64,000 nucleotides of DNA from Thermoplasmata archaeon (GCA_021819135.1 JAKASE010000001.1:75375-139374), one strand, 5' to 3'; positions 6,605 through 63,036 are shown, numbered from the stretch's first letter. Numbers and translations are program-made. Notes: generated by a model not told the origin, from the letters alone.

Positions 6605-6761
6605 CGGTCCCTTCGGCGCGCGCGTGCTCGGCGACCTGGGCGGCGATTTCGGCATAGGACTCCCCGGGGAGGTCAAGACGGGATGGCTCTTCAACTCGGC
6701 ACGGAGGGGTCCTGAAACACCGGAAGGGCGGCACGCGAAAGATCTGGGTGACCCGTAGTCC

Positions 6762-25081: not shown

Positions 25082-27103
25082 ATGACAGAAGGAGCGGTCC
25101 GACCCTCCGCGGGGTCCGAAGAGCCGGCGTCGCAGAGCGAGCTCGAACAGTGGACGAGCGCGCTTCCGTACACCTCGACCGCCCAGGTCGAGGTCCCTCC
25201 GCGCCTCCTGGACCAGGTGATCGGGCAGGACGAGGCGGTCGAGGTCGCCCGGAAGGCGGCGACGCAGAAGCGCCACATGATCCTGATCGGCGAGCCGGGC
25301 ACGGGCAAGAGCATGCTGGCCCGCGCGATGGTCGACTTCCTTCCGAAGGAGCAGCTCCAGGACATCCTCGCCTACCCGAACAACGAGGACCCGAACGAGC
25401 CCAAGATCCGCGTCGTTCCGTCGGGCAAGGGAAAGGAGATCGTCGCGGCCCAGAAGCTCGAGGCGGCCCAGAAGAAGGAGCAGCGGACGATCCTGTTCGT
25501 CGTCCTGGCGCTGGCCATCTTCGCCTTCACGCTCTACATCGTGCTCACGACGCACGACCTGACCGCGCTCCTCGTCGGCCTGCTGATCGTCTTCATCGTC
25601 TACGCGCTTGTCCGGTTCTCGGGCGGACGGAACGACTCGGGCACGGGCGTCGCGAAGCTGTTGGTCCCGCACACCCCCGACGACAAACCCCCGTTCATCG
25701 ACGCTACCGGGGCCCATGCCGGAGCGCTGCTCGGGGACGTCAAGCACGACCCGTTCCAGTCGGGCGGGCTCGAGACCCCTCCGCATGAGCGGGTGGAGGT
25801 CGGTGCGATCCACAAGGCGAACGGCGGGGTCCTGTTCATCGACGAGATCAACCTCCTCAAGATCGAGAGCCAGCACTCCCTGCTGACCGCGCTCCAGGAG
25901 CGGAAGTTCCCGATCGTCGGGCAGTCCGAGCGTTCGGCCGGCGCCATGGTGAAGACCGAACCGGTTCCCGCCGACTTCGTGCTCGTCGCCGCGGGCAACG
26001 TCGACAGCGTGCAGAACATGCACCCGGCGCTCCGCTCCCGGATCCGCGGCTACGGCTACGAGCTCTACGTGAAGACGACGATGCCCGACACCGTGGAGAA
26101 CCGGATGAAGATCGTTCGGTTCATCGCCCAGGAGGTCACGAAGGACAAGAAGATCCCCCACTTCGACACCGGGGCGATCGCGGAGGTCATCCGCGAGGCG
26201 CAGCGCCGCTCGGGCCGGTCGGGTCAGCTCACCCTGCGGCTCCGGGAGCTGGGCGGACTCGTCCGGGTCGCCGGGGACATCGCCCTTTCCGAGGGCCTCC
26301 CGATCGTCAAGGCCGACCAGGTCGTGAAGGCGAAACGCGCCAGCCGCTCGCTCGAGCAGCAGATCGCCGACCGCTACATCGAGCGCCGCAAGGAATACCG
26401 GATGTTCTCCACCGAAGGGGCGGCCGTCGGGGTCGTGAACGGTCTCGCCGCGATCAACGCCCAGACCGGCATGGCCGAGTTCTCCGGCATCGTGCTCCCG
26501 ATCGTCGCCGAGGTCACGCCGGCCCAGACACGGGACGGAGGCGTCGTGGTCGCGACGGGGAAGCTCGGGGAGATCGCTCGCGAGGCGGTCCAGAACGTGA
26601 GCGCCCTCATCAAGAAGTACACGGGGGAGGACATCTCCCGCTACGACATCCACATCCAGTTCGTGGGGACGTCGGACGGCGTCGAGGGCGACAGCGCCTC
26701 GGTGTCGATCGCCACGGCCGTCATCAGCGCCCTCGAGGGGGTCCCGGTGGACCAGTCGGTCGCAATGACCGGTTCGCTCTCCGTGCGTGGCCAGGTCCTC
26801 CCCGTCGGCGGCGTCACGGCGAAGGTCGAGGCCGCGGCCGACTCCGGCATCAAGCGGGTCCTCGTCCCCGAGGACAATCTGGACGACCTCGTCCTCGAAT
26901 CCCGGTACCGGGGCATGATCGAAGTGATCCCGGTGCGCACCCTGCGGGACGTCCTCAAGTACGCGCTCGTCGGCCAGGGTTCCCAGAAGGAGTCCCTCCT
27001 CGAGCGGCTCAGCGCGATGGTCCGCGCGACCAGTCGCACGTCCGAAGAGGTCCCGGCTACCGGCGCGGTGCCTCCGGCTCCCGCTCGGCCGGCCGGTTCG
27101 TGA
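25082..27103 (+). CDS. lon: archaeal membrane-bound Lon protease (LonB)
   Basis: AAA+ Walker A GEPGTGKS, inserted two-TM segment ([18 protein letters not shown]...), C-terminal Ser-Lys protease domain ([13 protein letters not shown]...K). Confidence 0.9.
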
Positions 27104-29891: not shown

Positions 29892-30563
29892 GTGCGCCCC
29901 CGAGGGGCCGCGGGTGCTCCGTGCCCGTCAATTCGCCTCGACCTTGGGTTCATCGTGCCCGTACGCGTCGGCGGAACCGGTTTCGACCGACCGAGGAGGA
30001 CCGGGTGCCAGGGGGCGTCGAGCACGACAGGCACAAGACGCCACTACCGAAGCAAGGTCGAGGTCCTGCGTGACCTCCTCGAGGCGTCCCGGGTGGACCA
30101 CGGTAAGACCCACATCATCGGTCGGGCCTTCCTCAACGAGGACCTCTTCGAGCGGTACGCTTCCTTGGCCCTCTCCGAGGGTCTCCTAGAGGCCGTCGAG
30201 GGGGGATACCGGGTCACTCCTTCCGGTATCACGTGGCTGGAGGCAGTCCGCCGCGTGCTCGAGAAGCGTACCGCGCTCGCTTCCGCGCTCAGTGAGCTGG
30301 CCCGGATCTCGGACCGTTCACCGGCCCCGAGGACGTGGGACGCCCCGCCGGTGGAGCGCAGCGCGTCAAGCCTCTCCGCCGAAGAACACCCGCCGGCGCT
30401 CGATTCGGTGATCGAGGAGCTCGGCCTCCCCGGCACCCGTTCCCCGCCCTCCCCTCGGGGCGAGGGCGCCGGCGGAGCGTCGGCATCCTCCCGGGTCCGA
30501 GTCGATCTCGCGCGAGGCGTGTCGCCCCGGCGCCGGCCGCCGAGGCGAAGGAGCCGTCCGTGA
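29892..30563 (+). CDS. HTH_45-type winged-helix protein with disordered C-terminal tail (start uncertain: ATG 29892 or GTG 29955)
   Basis: RHYRSKVEVLRDLLEASRVDHGKTHIIGRAFLNEDLFERYASLALSEGLLE matches archaeal HTH_45 (RSKIEIL.DIL...); translationally coupled (GTGA) to downstream membrane/peptidase gene. Confidence 0.55.
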   Translation: MRPRGAAGAPCPSIRLDLGFIVPVRVGGTGFDRPRRTGCQGASSTTGTRRHYRSKVEVLRDLLEASRVDHGKTHIIGRAFLNEDLFERYASLALSEGLLEAVEGGYRVTPSGITWLEAVRRVLEKRTALASALSELARISDRSPAPRTWDAPPVERSASSLSAEEHPPALDSVIEELGLPGTRSPPSPRGEGAGGASASSRVRVDLARGVSPRRRPPRRRSRP

Positions 30564-31894
30564 TCTCACCTACGGGAGTCCGCGGCGTACGTCCCTGGCT
30601 TCTCTTCGCTGCCGTGCTCGCGGTCGGGCAGTCGGTCTACTTCGCGACCCCCACGCTCACTCCCGAGGTCGCCCGAGCGGTCAGTCTCGCCGTCCCGCTC
30701 AGCGCGCTCGCGCTCTTCTTCCTGTTCGTCCGGTGGGACGGGAGTACGCCGCGCGACCACGGGCTCTTCCTGCCCCCCGACCCGGCCCGGGCCCTCGGCG
30801 TCGCCGCGCTGCTGGTCGGGGTCTACCTCATCGCCGTCCTCGAACCCGGGTTCGGCTTCGGGTTCCTGGCGGGGGCCGAGGACACCGTGGACAGCGTCCT
30901 CTACTGGATCGCGTACGCTCCGCTCACCGCCCTGGCCGGCGAGGCGGTCTTCCGAGGGTATCTGCTCGATCGCTGGCTCAAGCCGGGCACCCTACCGGCG
31001 TCGCTCGGGGTCTCCTCGGTGCTCTTCGCGGTCGCCGGGACGAACGTGGTCGTCCTCGAAGGGCTCGAGCCGGTCTCGTTGGGACGACTGCTGCTCAGCC
31101 GCGTTGCCCCGCTCGTCGTCCTCGGCGTCGTGCTCGGCTTCTACTACCTCTGCGCCGCGAGGAACCTGCTCGGGCCGTTCGTCCTCCGTACCGGGATCCT
31201 CCTCTTCGTGGGACTCTCGCCGCTCCTCGCCGGCTCGCCCGGCTGGCAGCTCTCCCTGCTCCTCGAGCTGTTCGCCTACGGTCTCGTCCTCGCGCTCCTG
31301 CTCGTCCTGTACCGACCGTCGCGCTTCCTCGCCCGCGCCTATCTCGGGGAGAGGTTCGGTCCCCGCCGGGGACGGTTCCGGGAGATCCGGGAGCGTCGGA
31401 GAGAGCGTCGGTCCCTGGTCGTCGCGAGCGTGGCCGTCGCGCTCGTGCTGTCGGGGACGTTCGTCACCCTCGTGACGACCCTCGGGACCAATCCCCCGTT
31501 CCTCGCCATCTCGAGCGATAGCATGAGCCCGACGATCCACCGGGGGGACATCGTTCTCGTCCGGCAGGCCGACGCCGCGTCGATCGGCGTCGGAACGGTG
31601 ATCGCCTACTCCTCCTCCTGCATGCCCTCCCCGGTAGTACATCGTGTCGTGGCCGAGAGCCCGGGAACCGGCGGCCCAGTGTACACGACGAGGGGGGATG
31701 CGAACGGGGTGAACGATCCGTGTCCCGTGCCGATCGGCGCCGTCATCGGGCAGATCGTTCTGGTCGTTCCCCTCCTCGGTTTCTTCGCCCTCTCGCCGGC
31801 GTTGTCGGTCGGAACGGTGGTGATCGCGGTCGTCGCCGTCGCCCTGCTCCGGCCCTCGTCGTCGTCGTTCTCCCATCGGAGGTGGCATCGATGA
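30560..31894 (+). CDS. fusion protein: polytopic membrane domain (degenerate CPBP/Abi-like EAVFRG motif) + C-terminal type I signal peptidase (SipW/Sec11, S26B type)
   Basis: ~8 TM helices then TM anchor and SDSMSPTIHRGD (Ser box), VVHRVV (His box), TRGDANGVND (GDNN box). Confidence 0.75.
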   Translation: MISPTGVRGVRPWLLFAAVLAVGQSVYFATPTLTPEVARAVSLAVPLSALALFFLFVRWDGSTPRDHGLFLPPDPARALGVAALLVGVYLIAVLEPGFGFGFLAGAEDTVDSVLYWIAYAPLTALAGEAVFRGYLLDRWLKPGTLPASLGVSSVLFAVAGTNVVVLEGLEPVSLGRLLLSRVAPLVVLGVVLGFYYLCAARNLLGPFVLRTGILLFVGLSPLLAGSPGWQLSLLLELFAYGLVLALLLVLYRPSRFLARAYLGERFGPRRGRFREIRERRRERRSLVVASVAVALVLSGTFVTLVTTLGTNPPFLAISSDSMSPTIHRGDIVLVRQADAASIGVGTVIAYSSSCMPSPVVHRVVAESPGTGGPVYTTRGDANGVNDPCPVPIGAVIGQIVLVVPLLGFFALSPALSVGTVVIAVVAVALLRPSSSSFSHRRWHR

Positions 31895-33189
31895 AAGGTC
31901 CGATCGCAGGGGTGGCGGTGCTGATCGTGCTGGCCGCGTGCGCCGGGTACTGGATCGCGTACGACGAGTCCCACGCCTCCCAGACCCCGGTCTCCACCAC
32001 GTTCCAGTACGAGGAGACGGGGGTCTACTCGTACGTGGCCGAGCTGAAGAACAACTCGCTCTACGGACCGGTCAACCTGACGAACCCCAACGCGACCCTC
32101 TTCTACGGGATCACCTCGTGGCTTCACGTCACGTACGTCTACCACATCACGCTCGACCGGGTCGTGAACACGACCGTGAACGCCGAGGTGCCGGTGGTCC
32201 TGGAGAGCTCGGTCTGGTCGAAACCGCTCGGGGCACAGAACGCGACGTTCGCGGCGACCGGCGCGAGAGGGGCGACCCTCGCGGTCACCTACGACCTCAA
32301 CGTGACGTCGGTCGTCTCCTTGGTCTCGTCGATCGTGAACGACACCGGCTACCAGCCGGATGCCTTCGCCGTCCGGTTCAGCCCGACGGTGACGACCTCC
32401 GTGGACACGGGGGGCACGGTGGCTCCGGTAGAGTTCGCCTCCACGCTCGCGTTGAACTTCACCTCCCAGCAGATCGTGCCGAGCGCGCTCCTTTCCTCCG
32501 CTCGGGGGGCCCACACGATCCTTGGAAGCCCGACCGGCGGAGTGCCGGGGATCTGGGGGAACGCCTACCTTCCGATCGGGATCCTGGTCGCGAGCCTCGG
32601 GGCCGCCGGCTATCTCGGGCTCCGTCCGTCCGGCGGATCCGATCGCCACCCCCGATCCCGTCTCGAAGCCGACCTGCGGGCCTACCGGGACGAGATCGCG
32701 GAAACCGATACTCCCCCGCCGCGCCAGCCGTCGGTCGAGGTCCGGTCGTGGGCCGACCTGGTGAAAGTGGCCGACACCCTCGGGCGGCCGATCCTACGGC
32801 TGGCCGACGCGACCGGCGGGGCACGGGAGGGATCGGTCTTCTACGTCCTCGCGGATTCCGTGGCCTACGTCTACCGGATCGAGGAAGCGGACCGGCCCGG
32901 GGAACCGACCGGACTCCGGGGCCCATCTCGCGACGCCCCCGGTCCGGCGGGATCCGTCGACATCCGGGCCGCCGTCGGCGAAGGGGACCGATCGCTCGGA
33001 CGGTTCGTTCGGGAAGTGAGCGACGTCAGCGAACGCCTGCGGACGAGCGGGGTCGGGGGCGAGCCTCGGAGAGAGGTGGACGCGCTCCTCCTTCGCGCGA
33101 TCGCTCGGGCCCGGCAAGGGCATCTGGACAGCGCGGAGCGGCTCCTTCGCGAAGCGGCCGAGCGAGCGGGTCGGACCGACCTCCGATAG
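31891..33189 (+). CDS. membrane-anchored N-glycosylated protein with SipW-cognate-like signal peptide (TapA-like accessory/fibre subunit candidate)
   Basis: ATG overlaps upstream stop (ATGA); N-terminal GVAVLIVLAACAGYWIAYDE resembles GGTWAAFND-type SipW-cognate signal; >10 sequons; second TM near residue 250 and cytoplasmic tail. Confidence 0.6.
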   Translation: MKGPIAGVAVLIVLAACAGYWIAYDESHASQTPVSTTFQYEETGVYSYVAELKNNSLYGPVNLTNPNATLFYGITSWLHVTYVYHITLDRVVNTTVNAEVPVVLESSVWSKPLGAQNATFAATGARGATLAVTYDLNVTSVVSLVSSIVNDTGYQPDAFAVRFSPTVTTSVDTGGTVAPVEFASTLALNFTSQQIVPSALLSSARGAHTILGSPTGGVPGIWGNAYLPIGILVASLGAAGYLGLRPSGGSDRHPRSRLEADLRAYRDEIAETDTPPPRQPSVEVRSWADLVKVADTLGRPILRLADATGGAREGSVFYVLADSVAYVYRIEEADRPGEPTGLRGPSRDAPGPAGSVDIRAAVGEGDRSLGRFVREVSDVSERLRTSGVGGEPRREVDALLLRAIARARQGHLDSAERLLREAAERAGRTDLR

Positions 33190-33336
33190 CTCCGGGGCGG
33201 AGCCCGGGGCCCCGACGCGGTGCCCGGATCATAGGATTCCCGGGTTTGCTCTGGAGCAGTGGGCTCGGACCTTCGCAGTCGGCTTGCCATCGCCCGCCCA
33301 TGCCCGGTACGAGGTGAAAGGCCTCAGGCTGAGAAA

Positions 33337-33876
33337 ATGTCGGGCAAGTGGGTTGTGGGACTGGTCGGAGTGTTCGTCGTGCTGGGCGTCGCGGGGGTCG
33401 GATTCGCGGCCTTCACGGACCCGTTGACCATCAATGGGAGCGCCACGGCAGGTACCTTGGACGTGCATATCGTGGACTACAGCAACAACGTCGCCTACCC
33501 GGGACACACGTACCTCACGCATCTCAGCGGTGACAAGAAGTCGATCGACCTCTATGCGTGGAACCTGGTTCCGGGCCAGTACCCGAACGAGCAGGTGAAG
33601 CTGAAGAACGTCGGCACGCTCCCGGCGCACATCGCCGTCACGCTCGTCAACAGCGACGGGAACCTCGTGGCCATGGGCGGCGCCGATGCCTTCGATGTCC
33701 AGACCACCTCGGGGCTCACCGCGGTGGGAGGTGTCTGGAGCGTCACACACTGGGTGACCCTCTACCCGGGCCACTCGATCTGGGACACGATCTACGTCGG
33801 GATCCCGGCGGGATCGACGTCCGCACCGGCGAGCACGACCTTCACGATCGTGTACACCGCGACCGCGGGCACCTGA
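33337..33876 (+). CDS. TasA/camelysin-like (peptidase M73 fold) secreted protein with SipW-cognate class signal peptide
   Basis: Signal VVGLVGVFVVLGVAGVGFAAFTD (G-x-G-F-A-A-F-T-D); GTLDVHIV...NLVPGQYPNEQVKLKNVGTLPAHIAVTLV parallels TasA GTLDL...NLKPGD...F.NNGSL. Confidence 0.7.
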   Translation: MSGKWVVGLVGVFVVLGVAGVGFAAFTDPLTINGSATAGTLDVHIVDYSNNVAYPGHTYLTHLSGDKKSIDLYAWNLVPGQYPNEQVKLKNVGTLPAHIAVTLVNSDGNLVAMGGADAFDVQTTSGLTAVGGVWSVTHWVTLYPGHSIWDTIYVGIPAGSTSAPASTTFTIVYTATAGT

Positions 33877-34208
33877 GCACCGAGAGACGCCTGCGAGTCG
33901 CAGCGCCGGTCGAAACCCTTTCCGGGCGGGCCGGTGGGGACCCCCACTCCCACCGACCCGCCTCCCGTATCCTTCGCGGTCTCTCCGAAGGGCAGGACTT
34001 TTCCCCCGAGACCCCACCGGATCGTGCGCTCCTGGAGCGCCGCCGGACCTCCGTACCGGTCGGCGGCCGAAGGGCCCGGGGGGTAGCGGCGGATCCCGAC
34101 CCGCTCCGCGGAAGATCCAGGACCGGGCTCTCGACACATGCCTCCGGAGGCCGACCCACTTCTCCGTACGCTCCGAGCCCGTTCGGGCCGTCCGGACGTC
34201 GAAGCGAC

Positions 34209-35018
34209 CTAGGCCGGCAGCCCGCCGTCGATCGGTACCCCGGTCCCGAACATCCCGATCGCCGATCCGAGGGCGACGAGCCAGGACAGCGGCGGGAGAT
34301 GGAGGCTACCGGGCCAGACCTCGGGGAACCGCTTCCGCTTGTCGCCCGAGCGTCCGACCGGTGCCCGCGCCGCCCCCGCATCATGGGACAATGGCCGGTG
34401 AGCAGAGCGCGAGAGGGACCCGGCAGCGAATGTCGGTGCCGACGCGTAGGCGGAGCCCGACGGAATGCTCGGGATCGGCGCCCGTGACGCGGTAGGAGGA
34501 AGACGGACCCTTGCGCCCTCGACCAAGGCGCCCGCGGGTTCTGGCGGGGCCTTCAAAGCGACGACCCACCGATGCCACCGCCCTTCCGCGGACCGGCCTT
34601 CGGCATCCCGGACGGAGAGCGCGGTCAGATCCTCCACGGCGGTGGCGAGCTCCGTTCGACGCTGGATCACGAGGTTCGCCGCGTTGAGCCAATCCTTGCC
34701 CCGGTCCGTAGCGCGGAACCCTATCGCGGTCCGCCGGAGCAGGCCCTGTTGCAGGGCCACTCCGGAGTAGCGAGAGAACGAGTCTTCGTTGAGGTTGGCC
34801 CGCCCGATGAGGCGGCCTTTCCGCATCTCCGACACCGCGGCGGCCACGAGGTCTCGGAGAACCTCGACCTTCGTTCGATACCGCCGACTACCGGTGCTCG
34901 TGGTCGTCCCCCCTCGGCCCGGGGCAAGCGTTCTCCCGGCGCCGGTGAAGGGCGCACGCGCTCCGATAAACGCATAGTGGCACGGAATTGACCTACCGGC
35001 CCGGTTCGCGCGCCTCAC
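34209..35018 (-). CDS. HTH_45-type winged-helix protein paralogue with C-terminal extension ending in a hydrophobic segment (start uncertain: GTG 35018 or ATG 35210)
   Basis: RRYRTKVEVLRDLVAAAVSEMRKGRLIGRANLNEDSFSRYSGVALQQGLL paralogous to 29892-30563 including the conserved TT.TG.RR.YR pre-helix segment. Confidence 0.5.
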   Translation of the reverse strand: MRRANRAGRSIPCHYAFIGARAPFTGAGRTLAPGRGGTTTSTGSRRYRTKVEVLRDLVAAAVSEMRKGRLIGRANLNEDSFSRYSGVALQQGLLRRTAIGFRATDRGKDWLNAANLVIQRRTELATAVEDLTALSVRDAEGRSAEGRWHRWVVALKAPPEPAGALVEGARVRLPPTASRAPIPSIPSGSAYASAPTFAAGSLSRSAHRPLSHDAGAARAPVGRSGDKRKRFPEVWPGSLHLPPLSWLVALGSAIGMFGTGVPIDGGLPA

Positions 35019-35382
35019 GACCGGCGGCGAAGGGTTGGGGCTCGCAAACCCCGTTCGACATGTAGGTCCCGCGCTCTTCCCACTCCCGAGCTCGAGCCGA
35101 TAAGGGCGACCGGGTCGGTCCTCTCTCGGGCGCGCAGAGGGACTTCCTCTGGCGACCGGCTCGGTGGTGTGCCCCTTGACCCGCGAGTTCCAGCAAGGGT
35201 CGGAGGCCATTCCACCGGGACCAAGGCCGGACTCGGGGCTCGGCAGGGCATTCGTCTGAGTTGGCTCGAACGAGGCGTGGGATCACCCTCTCGACCGGCG
35301 GGTCCGAAGAGGGAGCTGCGGCCGTCCTCGAGTGGGCGGGTAGCCCAAACTTATGAAGAACGGGGCATCCGCCCAGACGGTT

Positions 35383-35455
35383 GCCACTGTAGCTCAGTCG
35401 GCAGAGCGGCTGATTCGTAATCAGCAGGTCGGGGGTTCAAGTCCCTCCAGTGGCT
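35383..35455 (+). tRNA. tRNA-Thr (CGU)
   Basis: 73-nt cloverleaf: acceptor GCCACTG/CAGTGGC, D-arm GCTCAGTCGGCAGAGC, anticodon loop TTCGTAA, T-arm GGGGGTTCAAGTCCCTC; TATA-like CTTATGA ~30 nt upstream. Confidence 0.85.
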
Positions 35456-35499: not shown

Positions 35500-36742
35500 A
35501 TGGGTCAATCCCCGGTCGAACCGGCCGCCGACAATCGCCGGTTCGACATCCACGACACGCACGCCCAGATCGCCCACGCGGAGGCCCGACTGCGCTCAGG
35601 GGACTCGGGGGTCCCACCCGAGACCGCTCAGGCGATCCTCGAGTTCGTTGAGGCTCGTAGAGAAGCCGTCTCCGCGCAGAGGACGGTGACCTACCTTCGC
35701 GAATCTCCAGGCGGCCTCGAAGAGACTCGGCCGGGACCTTCTGGAACCGAACCGGGAGACGCCCGCGAAGTTCCTGCGGGCCTACCGCGAGAAGGAGGTC
35801 TGGACCAAGCTCACTGTGCGCTCCGTCCTCTACTCATTCTGGAAGTGGCGGTTCAATCGTGATGGGAAGGACTTCCCCCGCTGGCTCAAGATACCGCTCT
35901 CTGCGCGAGGGGCGAGCCGGAAAGACCACAACGATGTGTTGACCCCGGAGGAGGTCGCACGCATCGCCGATCACACAGTCAACCTCCGCGACAAGGCTCT
36001 GATCTGGGTCCTCTACGAGAGCGGAGGACGGATCGGCGAGGTGCTGACCCTGCGAATCGGCGACGTGGAGAGAACCGAATACGGGGCGGTCCGCCTCTAC
36101 TTTCCGACGGGAAAGACCGGTCGACGAACTGTCCCCCTCTTTGAAGCCGCGGTGCCGAACCTTCTCCTCTGGCTCAAGAACCATCCCCGAGCCAGCGACA
36201 GGGACGCTCCCCTCTGGGTCCAGATCGAGCAGGCGAACCCGAGCGGAAGTGGAATCGGCTACCGCTACGTCGTCAAGTTGCTCGAGCGAGCGGCGGCCCG
36301 CGCCGGCGTGGCGAAGCCGGTGAATCCGCACAGCTTCCGGCATTCCCGAGCCACGGCTGTGGCACAGAATCCCCAAGTCTCGACCTCGGTGCTCGAGAAG
36401 TTCTTCGGTTGGCAGCCGGGTTCGTCGATGGCGAAGACGTACGTTCACCTGTCGGGCAAGGAAGTCGAGGACGCCCTTGCCCGAGCCCACGGGATCGACC
36501 TCGGCAGATCGGAAACTCCGATGTCGAAGCTCCCGCGTGTGTGCGCCCGCTGCTCTACCTCAAACGACCCTGACGGGAAGTTCTGCGTCCAGTGCGGTGG
36601 TCCGCTCAGTCTTGAAGGCGTGGAGGAGCGGGCGAAGTGGAAGGCCGAGGAAGATGCGCTTGCCAACCTTCTTGACGACCCGAAGGTCCGCTCATTCATC
36701 GCGCGCCGGCTGAGGGTACATCTCGGCCGTGCAGAGGCGTAA
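35500..36742 (+). CDS. tyrosine recombinase/integrase, apparent +1 frameshift near 35690-35700 (N-terminal domain in frame of 35500, catalytic domain in frame of 35816)
   Basis: Catalytic boxes GGRIGEV (Arg), HSFRHSRAT (His-x-x-Arg), KTYVHL (Tyr); C-terminal zinc ribbon CARC...CVQCG; frame-2 reading open from 35690 encodes genuine-looking FLRAYREKEVWTKL segment lacking any start codon. Confidence 0.75.
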
Positions 36743-45174: not shown

Positions 45175-46997
45175 CTACATCTGGCTGACCGCCGCCTTGC
45201 TCGCGCTCTCCAACCGGCTTACCGGCGAGGGAAACCTCGCCGGTAGCCTCCCCTGGACCGATCCGGCTAAATAGGTGTGGGTCTTACGTATGACCCACAT
45301 GGCGGTCAAGCACAACCGCGGCTCGGGCCGCTGTTACCTCTCCCAGTGGCGCACCTACCGCCGAGACGGCAAAGTCGTCAGCGAGTACGTCCGCTACCTC
45401 GGCCTCTGCCCCGAGCACAATGCCGGTCCCTCCACCTCCGTCCTCGACCGCACGGTCCACGGCTCTTCCTATCGGGCGGGAGCGGTCCGACTGCTCTGGA
45501 GCCTCGCCGACGATTTGCAGTTCCGGGCCTCCATCGACCGGATCTGCGGCCGAGATTCCGACCCTTCCGAGCCCTCTCCGGGCCAAACCCTGACGGCCTG
45601 GGCCATCAACCGGGTCCTCGATCCCGCCAGCGCCACCCGCCTCGAACTGTGGACGCCCACCACCGACCTACCTCTCCTCGCTGGGGTCTCGGCGGACGCC
45701 TGGGCGAAGGACACCTTCTTGCGCGCCCTCGACCGGATCTGCTACGACGACCCGGCGCTCGCCCAGGTGGTCGACCACACCGCCGAACTCGAGGAGACGC
45801 TGAGCGCCGGGTGGCGGGAGCGCCACCCGCTCCTGAAGGGGACGAAGGAGGTGATGGCCTACGACCTGACGAACGTGCTGTTCTTCGGCGTCACCTGCCC
45901 GATCGCCACTCCGGGTAGGAACCCCGATCACCAGAATCGGCTCCAAGTGAACGTCGGCGCCGTGGTGAGCCGTCACGACCGGATGCTCTGGCGGCACTTC
46001 GTCTACCGGGGGAACCGGCACGGCGTGGGAACGATGCGGAACCTCTTGGTGGAGCTCCAGCGGGCCCAAGTGGCCCCCGGATTGCTCATCGTGGACCGAG
46101 GCCTCGTGGGCCGGGAGATCGTCGAGGAGGTTCGGGCGGTCGGCTGGCAGCTGCTTGGGGGGCTCTCGCGGAGTTCGAAGGAGGTTCGGGAGATCCTCGA
46201 CACGGCGAAGCTGCGAGAGAACCCCTCGACGTTCGTTCAGAAGACCCGAACGGGGGCGATCTACGCCGCGAAGGTCCGGGCGAGGCTCTGGAAGTCGGAG
46301 CAGGAGGTGGTGCTCTACACGAACGCGGAGCACGCGATGGACGATCGGGTGGAACGGGACCGTGCGCTCTCGATGATCGGGAAGGTGCTCGACACGCTCT
46401 CGGAGAAGGGGAAGGACTGGTCGGAAGGGAAGCTCCACGAGGCGATCGAGGGCGTGCTCGGGGAATCGGCGGAGTTCGTGAACGTCCGGGTGCGTCGGGG
46501 CGGGGCCACGCCGAGAGTGGCGTGGTCCTTTCGGGATCGGGCGGTGAAGGCGGCGGCCCGGCGGGACGGGAAGTACGTGCTGCTCTGCACGGACCCGGGG
46601 CTGTCGGCGGCGGAGGTGGTGGAGCAGTATCTGGGGAAGGACTTCGTGGAGAAGGCGTTCCGGACGTTCAAGTCGGGGATCGAGGTGGAGCCGGTGCGGC
46701 ACCGTCGGGAGCGGCGGGTACGGGCCTACCTGTTCGTGTGTGGGCTCGCGTATCGACTGGAGATGGCGCTTCGGTGGAAGCTCCTGGAGGGCGGTGTGAA
46801 GCCGGAGGACGTAGCGGAGTACCAGGAGCGGCTGCTGGAGGAGCTCGGACGCGTGGAACGAACCGAGGTCCGGCTGGGAGCTCAGGCCCGAACGTGGTAT
46901 CTGAATGTCACGGACCGCGTCCGGGAGGGGTTGAGGCGCCTCAAGCAGACCGGGTTGCTCCAAGAAGGGCCCGTCGCGACCGCGGTACCGGCGTAGG
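45175..46997 (+). mobile_element. IS1634-family insertion sequence with 9-bp target-site duplication TCATAGTAC
   Basis: Direct repeats at 45166-45174 and 46998-47006 flank a 1.8-kb segment carrying a single transposase gene. Confidence 0.65.
45290..46996 (+). CDS. IS1634 family (IS4 superfamily) DDE transposase
   Basis: MAVKHNRGSGRCYLSQWRTYRRDGKVVSEYVRYLG N-terminus and C-terminal YLGKDFVEKAFRTFKSGIEV (Y-x2-R-x3-E-x6-K) signature. Confidence 0.85.
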   Translation: MTHMAVKHNRGSGRCYLSQWRTYRRDGKVVSEYVRYLGLCPEHNAGPSTSVLDRTVHGSSYRAGAVRLLWSLADDLQFRASIDRICGRDSDPSEPSPGQTLTAWAINRVLDPASATRLELWTPTTDLPLLAGVSADAWAKDTFLRALDRICYDDPALAQVVDHTAELEETLSAGWRERHPLLKGTKEVMAYDLTNVLFFGVTCPIATPGRNPDHQNRLQVNVGAVVSRHDRMLWRHFVYRGNRHGVGTMRNLLVELQRAQVAPGLLIVDRGLVGREIVEEVRAVGWQLLGGLSRSSKEVREILDTAKLRENPSTFVQKTRTGAIYAAKVRARLWKSEQEVVLYTNAEHAMDDRVERDRALSMIGKVLDTLSEKGKDWSEGKLHEAIEGVLGESAEFVNVRVRRGGATPRVAWSFRDRAVKAAARRDGKYVLLCTDPGLSAAEVVEQYLGKDFVEKAFRTFKSGIEVEPVRHRRERRVRAYLFVCGLAYRLEMALRWKLLEGGVKPEDVAEYQERLLEELGRVERTEVRLGAQARTWYLNVTDRVREGLRRLKQTGLLQEGPVATAVPA

Positions 46998-52920: not shown

Positions 52921-54654
52921 CTCCGTCAGTCCAGCCCTCGAGGACCCGCGTCGAACAGTAACCCCGCCACGCCGATGGCTCCGAGGAGGGACCGCTGTTC
53001 CTTCGTCATCTCCGTCACGAGCCGGCGACGCCAGCCCGTCTTGGCGAGCTCGACCTCGTTCAGCATGATGGTGCGGAACTGGTCCAGGGCCTTCGCTCCC
53101 GTGAGCTCGTAATCGCGCATTCGGACGTGCAGTTCGACCACCCGCTCGAGGAGATAGGCGAGCACGCAGAGGAAGAGGTGGGCTTCGATCCGTCGCTCGA
53201 GGCGGTGGCGGATTGGGCGGACCTCCAGTCCGCTCTTCAGCTCCCGCCATCCCTGTTCGATGATCGAGAGCCCCATGTAGAGACGGGCGACCTCCTCGGG
53301 GGGAAGATCGGTGTCGGTGGTCAGTACCCACCAACCGGCCAGCCTCCGATCGCGTCGACGGCCTTCCTTGAGCTTCGCCGTCAATCCACGGACCGTCGCC
53401 TCGTCCCACTCGATCTCGAACAGGTCGGAGAGACCCTTTGCCGCCAGAGCGGCGTGGGCCTGTCGAAGGATCGTGTGATGGTGCCGAGGCCGCTTCGCCC
53501 AGGCACGGCGAAGCTGGTAGAGGATCGCCTCGCCCTGGGCGATCCTACGCCCGAGGTTCTCGAGCTCGGTCTTCCGTCGCTCCTCGTTCAAGAGGACGAT
53601 GAACCGTCGTCCCTCTCGGTCGATGACCTCACGGACCTGGTTCTGCTCGCTGACGGCCACTGGCGGGAGTTTCTGGGCCTGGAGGATGATCTCCTCCACG
53701 TTCCGATTGACCTCGGCGAGCACGTAGTGGAATCCGTGGGCGTGGAGGTCCGCGAGGACCTCCTCGCTCTTCATTCCCCGGTCGCCGACATAGGTCCCTT
53801 CCTTCAGTCCGAAGAGCCGGGTCAACCGGTCGACCATCCCGATGACCGTCGTGTTGTCGGTGGTGTTACCCGGATAGACCTGGAGGGTGATGGGGAGGCC
53901 CTCGGGCGTGACGACCATGCCCCAGCTGACCTGAGGCCGATCCGCTCGACGGTCTCTCGAGTAGCCGAACTGGGCGAGGGGACCTCCCTCGCCCTCGAAG
54001 TAGCTGGACGTGAGGTCGTGATAGAGCACTCCCGAGGATTGGCTCATTGGGCGCACGACCCGTTCGAACAGCTTCGGTTCGAACCGGTCCTTCGCTCGCC
54101 AGAAGGCATCCATCGCTCGGTAGAACAGGTTGTCGTGCAACCGCTCGGGGTCGAGGTGGAGGAAGAATGGAACGGCGGTGGTGGGCAACCACTCGAGGAG
54201 ACCATACTTCGAGGTCGGATCGTCGAGGCGGTTCAGCACGATCGCCTCGAGGAGCGCCGCGACCCGTCCCTTGTGCGGCACTCCATTAAGCGTTTCGAGG
54301 GCGAGTTGGTGGAGTCCAAGCTTCCGCCAGAGGAAGTGACCGATGGCCACTTTGCCGTAGCTCCACGACTGACGGACACTGAGCTCCGAGAGATCGGCGA
54401 TGTCCCGCGGTCGAGGAGCCAGGGGGAACCGCGGGTCGGTGGCCAGCCATCGACGGAGGTTCTCGATCTGCTCTGGAGTAACCCGACCGAAGTTGACCAG
54501 GACCTCGGTCCGGACCTTGGTTCCTTCCCGGATCCCTCGGGCCAACTGAGCGTAGGTCTGCCCCCGAGGACGAACGACCTTGATGTAGAGGCCTCGGGGC
54601 ACGCAGGGTAGAGAACTGACGAATAGATAGAAGTATCCAACGTATTCGATATGC
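52921..54654 (-). mobile_element. second IS1634-family element (different from the first); possible 11-bp imperfect direct repeat GTTATCCTA(T/C)A
   Basis: Repeat copies at 52910-52920 and 54655-54665; AT-rich 54620-54680 terminus; no clear terminal IRs found. Confidence 0.4.
52926..54602 (-). CDS. IS1634 family DDE transposase (558 aa)
   Basis: C-terminal LYMGLSIIEQGWRELKSGLEVRPIRH signature; family-typical length; GTG start. Confidence 0.85.
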   Translation of the reverse strand: MPRGLYIKVVRPRGQTYAQLARGIREGTKVRTEVLVNFGRVTPEQIENLRRWLATDPRFPLAPRPRDIADLSELSVRQSWSYGKVAIGHFLWRKLGLHQLALETLNGVPHKGRVAALLEAIVLNRLDDPTSKYGLLEWLPTTAVPFFLHLDPERLHDNLFYRAMDAFWRAKDRFEPKLFERVVRPMSQSSGVLYHDLTSSYFEGEGGPLAQFGYSRDRRADRPQVSWGMVVTPEGLPITLQVYPGNTTDNTTVIGMVDRLTRLFGLKEGTYVGDRGMKSEEVLADLHAHGFHYVLAEVNRNVEEIILQAQKLPPVAVSEQNQVREVIDREGRRFIVLLNEERRKTELENLGRRIAQGEAILYQLRRAWAKRPRHHHTILRQAHAALAAKGLSDLFEIEWDEATVRGLTAKLKEGRRRDRRLAGWWVLTTDTDLPPEEVARLYMGLSIIEQGWRELKSGLEVRPIRHRLERRIEAHLFLCVLAYLLERVVELHVRMRDYELTGAKALDQFRTIMLNEVELAKTGWRRRLVTEMTKEQRSLLGAIGVAGLLFDAGPRGLD

Positions 54655-61171: not shown

Positions 61172-63036
61172 GTGCGCCGAGCAACCATGGAGACCAGCAA
61201 CGACCCAAGCTACACGGTAAGTCGTAGCGGAAGGCAGGGTGTCGGGGGAAACCCCGAATCTGAAGGGCCTGACCCGCAAGCTCGTGGGCCGAAGGAAGAC
61301 GAACCGACAACCAGCCTCCTCGCGGAAGGACGACCCTGTTCTGACGGGGGGAAGTCGTGTGTGGCGTACGGCGAGGAGGTGTGTGAGGTCGGCACGCGGG
61401 TATCGGGCCTCCATGGTGACCTCGGGATGCCCTCGGTCCTCCCGGCCGTGGCAAGGAAGGAAGCCTCGGGGTTGGGACCCCGATGGCGAATGGCCCGAGC
61501 TACGGGAAGGGTAGACCTCGTGGCAACACGAGGACGAAGGGACCAGGGTGGCAGAGGGAGCCGTAGTAGTCGTGACGGCCGGGGAAACCCGGAACGAGCG
61601 AAGGGCTCCCGGTCGGCCAAGGGTGGCGCGGAAAAGACCGGCGGAGTGACTTCCCGAGGGCGGGCACGGAATGGTGGGACGACCCATCCCATCCTCTACG
61701 GAGAGCCGCCAAGGGAGGGGAAGGGCGCGGAGCGCCCTCCGAGTCGGTCGAGTGCCATCGGGGAGAACCACCCATGAAGCCGCTTCCGAAGTGGACGGGG
61801 CAGAAGCATTCCTCGCTGATGCCCCTGCTGTTTCGGAAGAAGACCCTCCAGGCGGCATGGGAGCAGGTGAGGAGGAATGGAGGAGCCCCGGGGATAGACG
61901 GCGAGACGGTGGAGGAGTTCGGAGAACATGCGAAGGAACGGCTGTGGGAACTGTCGGAGGAACTCCGACTGCACACGTGGCAGCCGAAGCCGTTGCGTCG
62001 AGTCTGGATACCGAAGCCGGACGGCCGGAAGCGAGGACTGGCCATCCCGAGCGTGGAGGACCGGGTGGTGCACGCCGCCATCGCCATCGTGCTCTATCCG
62101 ATGTTCGAGGACGTGTTCGGGGAGGCGTGCTTCGCGTATGTCCCGGGGAAGAACGCCCAGCAAGCAGTAGCGCGAGTAGCGGAGAAGGGACGAGCGGGGA
62201 AGGAATGGGTCGTGGAGACCGATGTGGCCTCGTTCTTCGACACGGTGGATCGGCGGCGACTGGTGGGGAAGCTCGCGGCGAGGATCGCGGACGGGAGCTT
62301 CCTTCGACTGGTGGGCCAAGTCGTTCGGTCCGGCGTGCTGGGAGAGCGGACCACAGAGGAGAGTGCCGAGGGAATCCCGCAAGGGAGTCCCCTGTCGCCC
62401 CTCCTGGCGAACATCTATCTCGCGGAGTTTGACCGAGAGGTAGGGAAGCGCTGGGAGTTGACGCGGTATGCCGACGACCTCGTGGTGCAGTGCGCCACGA
62501 GGGAGGAAGCGGAAGCGGCCCAGGAGGAGGTGGAGTCCGCCCTCGGGAACGAAGGGCTGACCATGAAGCCGGAAAAGACGCGTGTGGTGTCGTTGCGAGA
62601 GGGGGTGGACTTTCTGGGGTATCGCATCACCCTCGGGGGCGTCTGGCCCTCGGAGAAGTCGGTGAAGCGGCTTCAGGAGAAGGTACGCTCCCTGACGCTG
62701 CGGCACGAGACGCGTCCGCTGAAGGAAGTGGTGCAACGGGTGATGCCCGTGATTCGCGGGTGGACGAACTACTTCTCGATGACCGAGCCATCTCGGCTCT
62801 GGAACCTGGGGATGTGGATTCTGGACCGAATTCGCCTGTGCGCCGTGAAGCACTGGTGGCGAGTGAAGTGGCAGAAAGAAGCGTCCTCCGCACGGCTGTA
62901 CGGGCTGGGATTGAGGCTACCGTATGTCCTCCTCAAGTGGGGCGCCCGATGAGGCCGAGAAAGCCGTGTGCGCTAAACGCGCCCGCACGGTTTGGGGTGG
63001 CGGACGGCGGGGAGTAACCTCCGCCTCCGACCCTAT
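61172..63036 (+). mobile_element. group II intron (~1.86 kb): 5' GUGCG, domain I-IV with IEP ORF, domain V (62961-62993), domain VI with bulged A, 3' end ~63036
   Basis: GTGCG at 61172-61176; RT/maturase ORF in domain IV; DV AAGCCGUGUGCGC-UAAA-CGCGCCCGCACGGUUU with AGC triad and 2-nt bulge; DVI GGCGGGGAG-UA-A-CCUCCGCC. Confidence 0.75.
61774..62952 (+). CDS. group II intron-encoded reverse transcriptase/maturase (RT + X domains, no endonuclease domain)
   Basis: RT blocks: RVWIPKPDGRKRGLAIP (RT1-2), FAYVPGKNAQQAV, SFFDTVDRRRL, IPQGSPLSPLLANIYL (RT5), YADDLVVQC (RT5 YADD); maturase X tail. Confidence 0.9.
   Translation: MKPLPKWTGQKHSSLMPLLFRKKTLQAAWEQVRRNGGAPGIDGETVEEFGEHAKERLWELSEELRLHTWQPKPLRRVWIPKPDGRKRGLAIPSVEDRVVHAAIAIVLYPMFEDVFGEACFAYVPGKNAQQAVARVAEKGRAGKEWVVETDVASFFDTVDRRRLVGKLAARIADGSFLRLVGQVVRSGVLGERTTEESAEGIPQGSPLSPLLANIYLAEFDREVGKRWELTRYADDLVVQCATREEAEAAQEEVESALGNEGLTMKPEKTRVVSLREGVDFLGYRITLGGVWPSEKSVKRLQEKVRSLTLRHETRPLKEVVQRVMPVIRGWTNYFSMTEPSRLWNLGMWILDRIRLCAVKHWWRVKWQKEASSARLYGLGLRLPYVLLKWGAR

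Follow-up and report, generated by a model that had tools for sequence, protein, structure and literature searches.

In a 64,000-nucleotide stretch of a Thermoplasmata archaeon genome (GCA_021819135.1 JAKASE010000001.1:75375-139374; hereafter the window, with positions counted from its first letter), two paralogous genes, here called A and B, encode real and intact winged-helix regulators of the Sso10a/HTH_45 type that have no ATG, GTG or TTG near the beginning of the conserved domain. We propose an ACG as the translation start of both, seven codons ahead of a conserved tyrosine, at 30024 in A and at 34901 in B, and we put the probability of this reading at about 0.8. If it is right, this is a natural archaeal ACG start, maintained in evolution and shared by no fewer than 23 diverged loci that belong to a single regulator family. 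Such a start would be a new form of non-canonical initiation for archaea, in a protein family and a gene cluster that are already known.

Left of 36 kb the window has a G+C content of about 70%, and here ORF (open reading frame) A occupies 29892-30563 on the plus strand (223 aa) and ORF B 34209-35210 on the minus strand (333 aa). The two are 48% identical over 91 amino acids (E = 2e-24), and the similarity begins at Y52 of ORF A and Y111 of ORF B, the residues that also match position 1 of the Pfam HTH_45 profile. Codons are numbered from this tyrosine, the first residue of Y-R-[ST]-K-V-E-V-L-R-D-L, whose codon (0) is tac in A, at 30045, and tat in B, at 34880. An earlier reading of the sequence alone (the sequence-only reading) had recognised paralogous HTH_45 proteins without an obvious start codon, and both observations hold. 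Its estimate that the nearest start lies 40-100 codons upstream was roughly right: the nearest upstream in-frame canonical codon of A is a GTG at -30 (29955), with the ORF opening at -51, and that of B is a GTG at -46, with the ORF's ATG at -110. Between -30 and +16 in A, and between -46 and +11 in B, no in-frame ATG, GTG or TTG is found; the first downstream in-frame GTG stands at +16 and +11, respectively.

Public models of these genes disagree. The NCBI/ENA model of A starts at the internal GTG (P0001, 'MDHGKTH', 156 aa) and that of B also has an internal start (P0018, 'MAAAVSEM'), so that helix 1 is deleted from both, whereas the Logan model of A starts at 29892 (P0158, 223 aa). The extended public models add 50-110 spurious codons. 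If the ACG start is correct, every public model of these genes is wrong, either truncated or extended, and gene callers limited to ATG, GTG and TTG would systematically damage such genes in high-G+C archaeal metagenome-assembled genomes.

The segment common to both genes is SSTTGTRRHYRSKVEVLRDL in A and TTTSTGSRRYRTKVEVLRDL in B. The pattern by which the sequence-only reading described it requires a one-residue gap; the shared segment itself is real, but a gap-free codon alignment describes it better, and in that alignment an ACG stands seven codons before the tyrosine in both genes.

The expected N-terminus

The sequence-only reading had suggested aligning HTH_45 relatives to find the true N-terminus. 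We did so by a profile hidden Markov model search and core alignment against 1.84 billion representative proteins, and in most of the best 150 family representatives the N-terminus lies 4-11 residues before the tyrosine. Sso10a itself begins two residues before the equivalent of this tyrosine, residue 3 of the structure 1R7J being the one that aligns with it (the family profile matches 1R7J with E = 1.8e-6). An AlphaFold2 model of A, computed as a monomer numbered from codon -7 with a 21-row alignment, has a mean confidence (pLDDT) of 92.5, with helices at residues 11-24, 28-35, 39-51 and 66-97 and strands at 55-58 and 61-64. Its top match in the Protein Data Bank (PDB) is Sso10a 1R7J (TM-scores 0.75/0.86, rmsd 1.7 A over 88 columns), and the other leading matches, likewise from the pair Sso10a and Sso10a-2, are 4HW0 and 1XSX. 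Counted from the ACG, helix 1 of the model thus starts at residue 11. Because the N-termini of the family, the Sso10a structure and the modelled fold agree, the true N-terminus of A and B must lie a few codons before the tyrosine.

Profile scores place the two proteins in the same neighbourhood. A scores 34.5 bits against Pfam HTH_45 (PF14947; cut-off 25.5, E = 2.1e-8), and B, 48% identical to A across the domain, scores 23.9 bits, slightly under that cut-off. Against the NCBIfam profile Sso10a_fam (NF053610) both fall under the curated cut-off of 60 bits, with 41.1 for A and 30.9 for B. By these scores A and B are relatives of Sso10a that stand outside the narrow chromatin-protein subfamily.

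ACG is the conserved codon at -7

In gene A the ACG occupies 30024-30026 on the plus strand and is the sole near-cognate of AUG between codons -11 and -1; in gene B it occupies 34899-34901 on the minus strand, in the same alignment column. A first set of loci, collected by exact-protein look-ups and one scan of GTDB genomes and aligned codon by codon without gaps, had ACG at -7 in all 14 loci that lack a nearby canonical start. A second sample was drawn from metagenomes by the core motifs alone, ignoring the N-terminus; an earlier metagenome scan with narrow peptide patterns had found no loci, and the broader alignment then gave 64. Removal of near-duplicates left 65 distinct loci from independent assemblies. 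A canonical start between -12 and -1 is missing from 24 of these 65, and 23 of the 24 have ACG at -7, whereas among the 41 loci that do have such a start the number is 4 (nominal Fisher p = 1.7e-12). The metagenome sample alone gives the same picture, with ACG at -7 in 9/10 start-less and 4/39 canonical loci (nominal p = 3e-6). Since the missing start recurs in 24 of 65 loci from independent assemblies, it is not a matter of chance or of assembly error.

Codon usage in these genes does not predict such uniformity. Downstream threonine codons comprise 53 ACG, 75 ACC, 9 ACT and 8 ACA, so that ACG makes up 37% (53/145), and at this frequency the chance of ACG in 23 of 23 would be about 1e-10, in a calculation that ignores relatedness. 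The serine/threonine column at +2 varies between ACC, ACG and ACT, and the invariant arginine and leucine columns each use four or five synonymous codons, which means that synonymous sites are saturated. In the leader alignment no triplet upstream of the core is invariant except the ACG, and the codons around it, from -10 to -3, vary strongly. Judged from these alignments, conservation at -7 acts on the codon and not on the amino acid.

Relatives that do have a canonical start show what this column is. GTG stands at -7 in loci L001 and L021, ATG in P0019, P0057, P0093 and P0072, and TTG in L046, and because of this -7 behaves as a start-codon column; L009 has its GTG start at -10. On a neighbour-joining tree the ACG-type genes are scattered, with sisters that are canonical at exactly -7. 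The B-type L011 (protein P0016) has the sister P0019 with methionine at -7, L018 is paired in the same way with P0057, and L016 with P0093. P0039, known at the protein level, reads TYRGDRQYR with threonine at -7 and its sister P0072 reads MYRGDRQYR, while L020 (gag aca ACG tcg tcg) has the sister L021 (gag gaa GTG tcg tcg). GC pressure was considered as the sole cause and set aside, G+C being 0.691 in ACG-type and 0.665 in canonical loci, with no significant difference (p = 0.14).

Shine-Dalgarno-like elements precede the ACG

Both genes carry a G-rich element at the distance expected of a ribosome-binding site, namely a Shine-Dalgarno (SD)-like AGGGGG at 30010-30015 on the plus strand, 8 nt before the ACG of A, and AGGGGGG at 34908-34914 on the minus strand, 6 nt before that of B. 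Complementarity of at least 5 nt to the assumed 16S rRNA tail, at a spacing of 5-10 nt, was found for all 14 ACG sites of the first set, compared with 14.8% of a background of 9,687 other ACG trinucleotides in the examined loci. The elements are mostly AGGGGG, with some GGGAGG, AGGAGG and GGGTGA. When the best SD-like element was located blind to the start, 16 of 23 loci had it at 4-9 nt upstream of the ACG, and the spacing from SD to ACG is as tight as that from SD to the canonical start in the rest of the family. In L009 and L023, where the start is at -10, the G-run has moved upstream together with the start.

Other genes of the window are organised alike, with SD elements of the GGAGG or GGGGG type at 4-9 nt. 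Examples are GGGGG 8 nt before the ATG of the ORF opening at 6752, GGGGGGT 8 nt before a GTG within the ORF opening at 26928, AGGAG 6 nt before the GTG of the gene starting at 30560, and GGAGGTGG 5 nt before the ATG of the gene starting at 31891. A crude and insensitive scan of 29 confident ORFs of the window for other ACG-initiated genes, in which a coding-like stretch preceding the first canonical start had to be accompanied by an SD and an ACG, gave nothing but one weak case, the ORF beginning at 61576.

The upstream region has the features of a promoter and leader

In five start-less loci (L008, L010, L027, L033 and L050) the frame is closed upstream by a stop codon, and as no ATG, GTG or TTG follows it before the tyrosine, canonical initiation is impossible there. 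L008 is the clearest of these: with an in-frame TGA at -12, it has no ATG, GTG or TTG from -12 to +120, in an intact operon on a 308-kb contig. Over the 40 codons upstream of -7, pooled from 16 loci, G+C at the three codon positions is 0.65/0.69/0.69, with no phase that looks coding, compared with 0.70/0.48/0.83, a coding signature, in the conserved core.

TATA-like boxes of the types GGTTAATC, GTTTATC or TATTATAG occur 63-87 nt before the ACG. The box of A, GGTTCATC at 29947-29954 on the plus strand, aligns with GGTTAATC in L001, L005 and L006, and clear boxes of the TATTATAG type are present in L009 and L016-L019. The nearest in-frame GTG of A (29955) abuts this box and would lie upstream of the expected transcription start. 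In B the box is GTTTATC at 34965-34971 on the minus strand, 64-70 nt upstream of the ACG; it and the TCAATT of the GTCAATTC motif are the only two AT-rich patches in the 140 nt inspected, and all in-frame canonical starts of B (GTG -46, ATG -110) lie upstream of the box.

The 8-mer GTCAATTC has only two copies in the 64-kb window, one upstream of A (29927-29934, plus strand; a candidate operator or promoter element) and one upstream of B (34985-34992, minus strand). Both are in the sense orientation, 111 nt (A) and 108 nt (B) before the tyrosine, and each is about 13-14 nt upstream of the TATA-like box. Motifs of the type TC[AG]ATTC stand at the matching place in L001, L005, L006, L008 and L011. 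The shared GTCAATTC fits a common regulation, or a cross-regulation, of what we take to be the promoters of A and B. That the pair may act as a dual regulator or anti-regulator was a suggestion of the sequence-only reading.

We looked for RNA structure in the leader with RNAalifold, which predicted no pairs over 14 leaders, and an Rfam scan of the window returned two tRNAs and a group II intron only, with no riboswitch-like leader. Two short elements of the upstream region recur among the loci. A second conserved leader element, cGGGAcc, about 18-27 nt before the ACG and upstream of the G-run, is seen in many loci, among them the window (30002-30008), L005, L010, L013, L016, L018 and L019, and has no predicted pairing partner. 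In L016-L019, the more distant ACG-type loci, CCGTCCG is conserved 10-20 nt downstream of the TATA box and may be an initiator or operator.

Alternative explanations

The most obvious alternative is that the long N-terminal extensions are real, with translation from the upstream codons (29892 or 29955 in A, 35210 or the GTG at -46 in B), as called by Logan/JGI. The frames are indeed open for 51 codons (A) and 110 codons (B) upstream, gene callers have produced the extended models P0158, P0002 and P0004, and an in-frame S-I-x-x-x-L-x-x-I looks conserved among A, B and P0002. These residues, however, are the GTCAATTC and TATA-like DNA motifs read in frame, and L001 has these motifs too, with a TAG after them in the same frame. 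At 70% G+C long frames stay open by chance, the upstream codons lack periodicity, the extensions vary in length and sequence among homologues, and the five loci with in-frame stops have no canonical start between the stop and the tyrosine; we therefore regard a far upstream start as highly unlikely. The sequence-only reading had understood the pre-helix segment as a protein extension from such a start and had named non-canonical initiation just before R-R-Y-R as what would overturn this, and the comparative evidence points there. The conserved 'G-G / Q-G-A' of the supposed extension is the SD-like G-run read in frame, and its conserved 'T' is the invariant ACG codon. The deposited NCBI/ENA annotation (P0001 and P0018) takes the opposite course and starts at the first downstream GTG, which does exist in frame at +16 (A) and +11 (B). 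A protein made in this way would lack helix 1 of the winged-helix fold, yet nothing in the family is better conserved than the skipped Y-R-x-K-V-E-V-L-R-D-L, within which variation is synonymous; moreover, the position of the downstream start drifts from +4 to +70 among loci and there is none in L008. We give this even less credence than a far upstream start. Decay into pseudogenes would explain the want of a canonical start, and L067 has a stop at the tyrosine codon. As against this, the frames are intact, the amino acids of the core are strongly conserved while their codons change synonymously, and at least 23 distinct loci from many assemblies keep the gene order of the operon and its overlaps of stop and start, which makes decay the least probable of the explanations considered. 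L067 has a near-identical twin, L063, with TAC at this place, and may be a pseudogene or contain a sequencing error.

Other explanations accept that something happens close to the ACG. The ACG might not itself be read, the message being edited from C to U to give AUG, or the ribosome slipping or shifting frame at the G-run from an out-of-frame start. Plant-organelle starts that are edited are known to show just this alignment of ACG with the ATG of relatives, and runs of five to seven G stand just upstream of the ACG, but no archaeal case of mRNA editing is known to us and no upstream phase has coding periodicity; this reading is as improbable as that of real extensions. A frameshift or slippage at the G-run was rejected: the existing out-of-frame starts would require opposite shifts, -1 in gene A and +1 in L008, and L016, L017 and L020 have GGGAGG, AGGAGG or GGGTGA, which are SD-like without being homopolymers. 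It might also be that another nearby non-canonical codon is the start (ACG or AGG at -9, AGG at -11, CTG at -9), with the ACG at -7 kept for a different function, for example as a binding site. Extra near-cognates are present between -11 and -1 at some loci, CTG at -9 in a whole subgroup, but no alternative is common to the family and ACG at -7 is the sole near-cognate in gene A, L008, L010, L013 and L015; the CTG abuts the G-run without a spacer and is out of frame in L034/L040. To our minds this deserves as little belief as the downstream GTG. A special initiator-like tRNA was considered as well and discarded, because the adjacent tRNA-Thr(CGU) has G1:C72 and an A/U-rich anticodon stem and is an ordinary elongator. 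This tRNA, the decoder of ACG, is found directly upstream of gene B at 35383-35455, which is probably a coincidence.

Several points weigh against initiation at the ACG. The argument is a comparative one. The anti-SD sequence was assumed to be the canonical archaeal 16S tail, GAUCACCUCCU-3', as the window holds no rRNA. Eight of the first 14 loci were selected for threonine at -7, at the level of the protein and not of the codon, a bias that the metagenome sample removes; most of the sequences are related, so that the p-values overstate their independence. One start-less type, L060/L064 (P0082 type), is without ACG at -7. In a subgroup the ACG is accompanied by an in-frame CTG at -9; this CTG follows the G-run directly, and in L034 it is not in frame. 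To our knowledge ACG is not an accepted start in archaea or bacteria and stands outside the initiators of genetic code table 11, and our literature search for a natural ACG start in archaea found no report; for prokaryotes at large it gave nothing relevant apart from the E. coli and Haloferax studies cited below. As for L060/L064, their codons -13 to -9 consist of a seven-G run followed by acc, ACG (-10) and CTG (-9), and the start there may be the CTG or an ACG at another position.

Precedents and a possible mechanism

In E. coli reporters, initiation at ACG reaches about 0.1-1% of that at AUG, and the proteins mostly begin with methionine (10.1101/063800), and in ribosome profiling of Haloferax about 30% of putative alternative initiation sites were near-cognate and were set aside (PMC7261190).

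Natural near-cognate starts include the AUU of bacterial infC and the ACG of eukaryotic and viral mRNAs such as that for AAV VP2; in plant organelles ACG starts are edited to AUG. The case described here resembles these in having a near-cognate in the start position, conservation at the nucleotide level and, probably, weak initiation. It differs from them in being archaeal and SD-led, in being kept across so many diverged loci of one regulator family, and in having no known autoregulatory loop that involves an initiation factor.

Under the preferred reading, the mRNAs of A and B would be leadered, with a TATA-like box about 65-75 nt upstream and a G-rich SD-like element 6-8 nt before the ACG, with which the initiator tRNA would pair through a central mismatch, giving a low initiation rate. 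The 'pre-helix extension' would then be two things, a ribosome-binding site read in frame and a seven-residue basic N-terminal arm (x6-Y-R). Read in this frame, the SD G-run would yield G-G or Q-G-A and the ACG threonine, and the arm would end in R-R-x-Y-R. From the shared GTCAATTC/TATA promoter region, A would be likely to control its own operon. The promoters, the transcription starts and the regulatory roles of A and B are predictions of the same kind.

As ATG is one transition away and relatives use ATG, GTG or TTG at this position, the persistence of ACG suggests selection for weak or conditional initiation. If so, a regulator under weak or conditional initiation heads a surface-fibre (probably biofilm) operon. 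Archaeal initiation factors are eukaryote-like (aIF1, aIF1A and aIF2), and a natural near-cognate substrate would make start-codon stringency directly testable. That the ACG is handled by a dedicated mechanism, either C-to-U editing to AUG or a specialised initiation pathway with ACG as a fourth start codon under regulation, seems to us very unlikely, and for such editing we know of no archaeal precedent. Were a specialised pathway to exist, expression of the fibre/biofilm operon would be tied to the fidelity state of the initiation machinery, and with a dedicated mechanism of either sort ACG starts may hide in other mis-annotated genes of the lineage.

The two regulators and the fibre operon

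Re-annotated from the proposed starts, gene A (30024-30563, plus strand) encodes a winged-helix regulator of the Sso10a/HTH_45 type, 179 aa long, whose P/R-rich tail is disordered, and gene B (34209-34901, minus strand) a 230-aa paralogue of the same type that has a long linker and, at its C-terminus, a membrane anchor. No further paralogue of A or B was found within the 64-kb window. The difference between the tails had been seen in the sequence-only reading and is borne out. That of A is rich in P, R, S and G without a hydrophobic stretch (maximum Kyte-Doolittle value over 19 aa, 0.52), and that of B contains the hydrophobic segment SWLVALGSAIGMFGTGVPI (34230-34286, minus strand; Kyte-Doolittle 1.42) with KRKR just before it. 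In a full-length alignment the anchor is kept in the orthologues P0016 and P0019 and is weaker in P0015. This suggests that B is a membrane-tethered paralogue.

Like Sso10a and Sso10a-2 of Sulfolobus solfataricus (1R7J, 1XSX, 4HW0), A and B are predicted to combine a winged helix built of three helices, with a beta-hairpin as the wing, and a long C-terminal helix, and to have a short basic N-terminal arm ahead of helix 1. Unlike Sso10a, they have 80-130 additional C-terminal residues (the disordered tail of A, the linker and anchor of B), and in one third of their family ACG stands where a canonical start would be. Sso10a is an abundant chromatin protein, whereas the proteins of the window appear to be operon-linked regulators.

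As the sequence-only reading had it, the convergent pair encloses a fibre cluster, whose genes are at 30560-31894, 31891-33189 and 33337-33876, all on the plus strand. The first encodes a 444-aa protein in which a CPBP (Rce1-like) intramembrane protease domain is fused to an archaeal signal peptidase I (Pfam Rce1-like, 32.8 bits; NCBIfam TIGR02228 sigpep_I_arch, 87 bits against a cut-off of 51.85), and its GTG overlaps the TGA of A (GTGA). The second encodes a DUF5305 (TafG-like) protein (PF17231, 35.4 bits against a cut-off of 29), and its ATG, 5 nt after the SD element named above, overlaps the preceding stop (ATGA). The third encodes a putative fibre subunit with a probable signal peptide of the SipW-dependent type; its score of 17.5 bits against NCBIfam TIGR04088 is just under the cut-off of 19, a match to Peptidase_M73/camelysin is weak (E = 0.024), and a sequence search of the PDB gave no match for it. 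Homologues of this subunit occupy the matching operon position in L005, L008 and L015.

The gene for the CPBP and peptidase fusion is directly downstream of the regulator in about 40 loci, and the order regulator, CPBP-peptidase, DUF5305 is kept in about 40 of the fetched loci whatever the start codon; the pairing of peptidase and DUF5305, also described for taf clusters, is kept in about 35. A heads a conserved operon of regulator, CPBP plus signal peptidase I, DUF5305 and putative TasA/taf-like subunit, to which it is translationally coupled, and from its position and predicted fold it is most likely the operon's own regulator. The B-type orthologue L011 has no fibre genes nearby, and among B-type orthologues the convergent arrangement is not kept. 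With B predicted at the membrane, the CPBP-peptidase fusion might be a protease that acts on it there. This fusion, of about 450 aa and next to DUF5305 in about 40 loci, differs from TafD, the peptidase of the taf clusters, and we found no description of it.

A related cluster, taf (Tat-fimbriae), is known from Haloarcula hispanica, with relatives in Thermococcales and Archaeoglobales, and contains a signal peptidase, DUF5305 and small subunits; it also encodes TafB, a predicted regulator that has a membrane anchor and a domain in the cytoplasm (PMC11821415). Operons for TasA-like archaeal pili also include a winged-helix regulator (PMC9245690). The operon of the window shares with taf a dedicated signal peptidase I, a TafG-like DUF5305 protein, small secreted subunits and a regulator within the cluster, and tapA-sipW-tasA of Bacillus subtilis and the archaeal bundling pili are further systems of comparison. 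TafB parallels gene B in its predicted layout. Unlike in taf, the peptidase is fused to a CPBP/Rce1-like domain and the subunit appears to have a signal of the Sec/SipW type, not Tat; the relation of the subunit to TasA or TafA is weakly supported.

Neighbouring DNA

From 35383 to 64000, immediately to the right of the tRNA-Thr(CGU), the window is an island rich in mobile elements, with a G+C content of 0.58-0.65 compared with 0.70. At 35816-36742 it contains a XerA-like tyrosine integrase whose C-terminal tail resembles a zinc ribbon; several ORFs without a Pfam match and two DDE transposases, at 45275-46996 (plus strand) and 52929-54605 (minus strand), are also present. A search for a direct repeat of the tRNA 3' end that could serve as attachment site of the integrase island found none. 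Towards its end lies a group II intron (61774-63036) with a reverse transcriptase/maturase ORF (RVT_1 126 bits, GIIM 52 bits), directly followed at 62959-63036 by an Rfam Intron_gpII match of 41.4 bits against a gathering score of 40.

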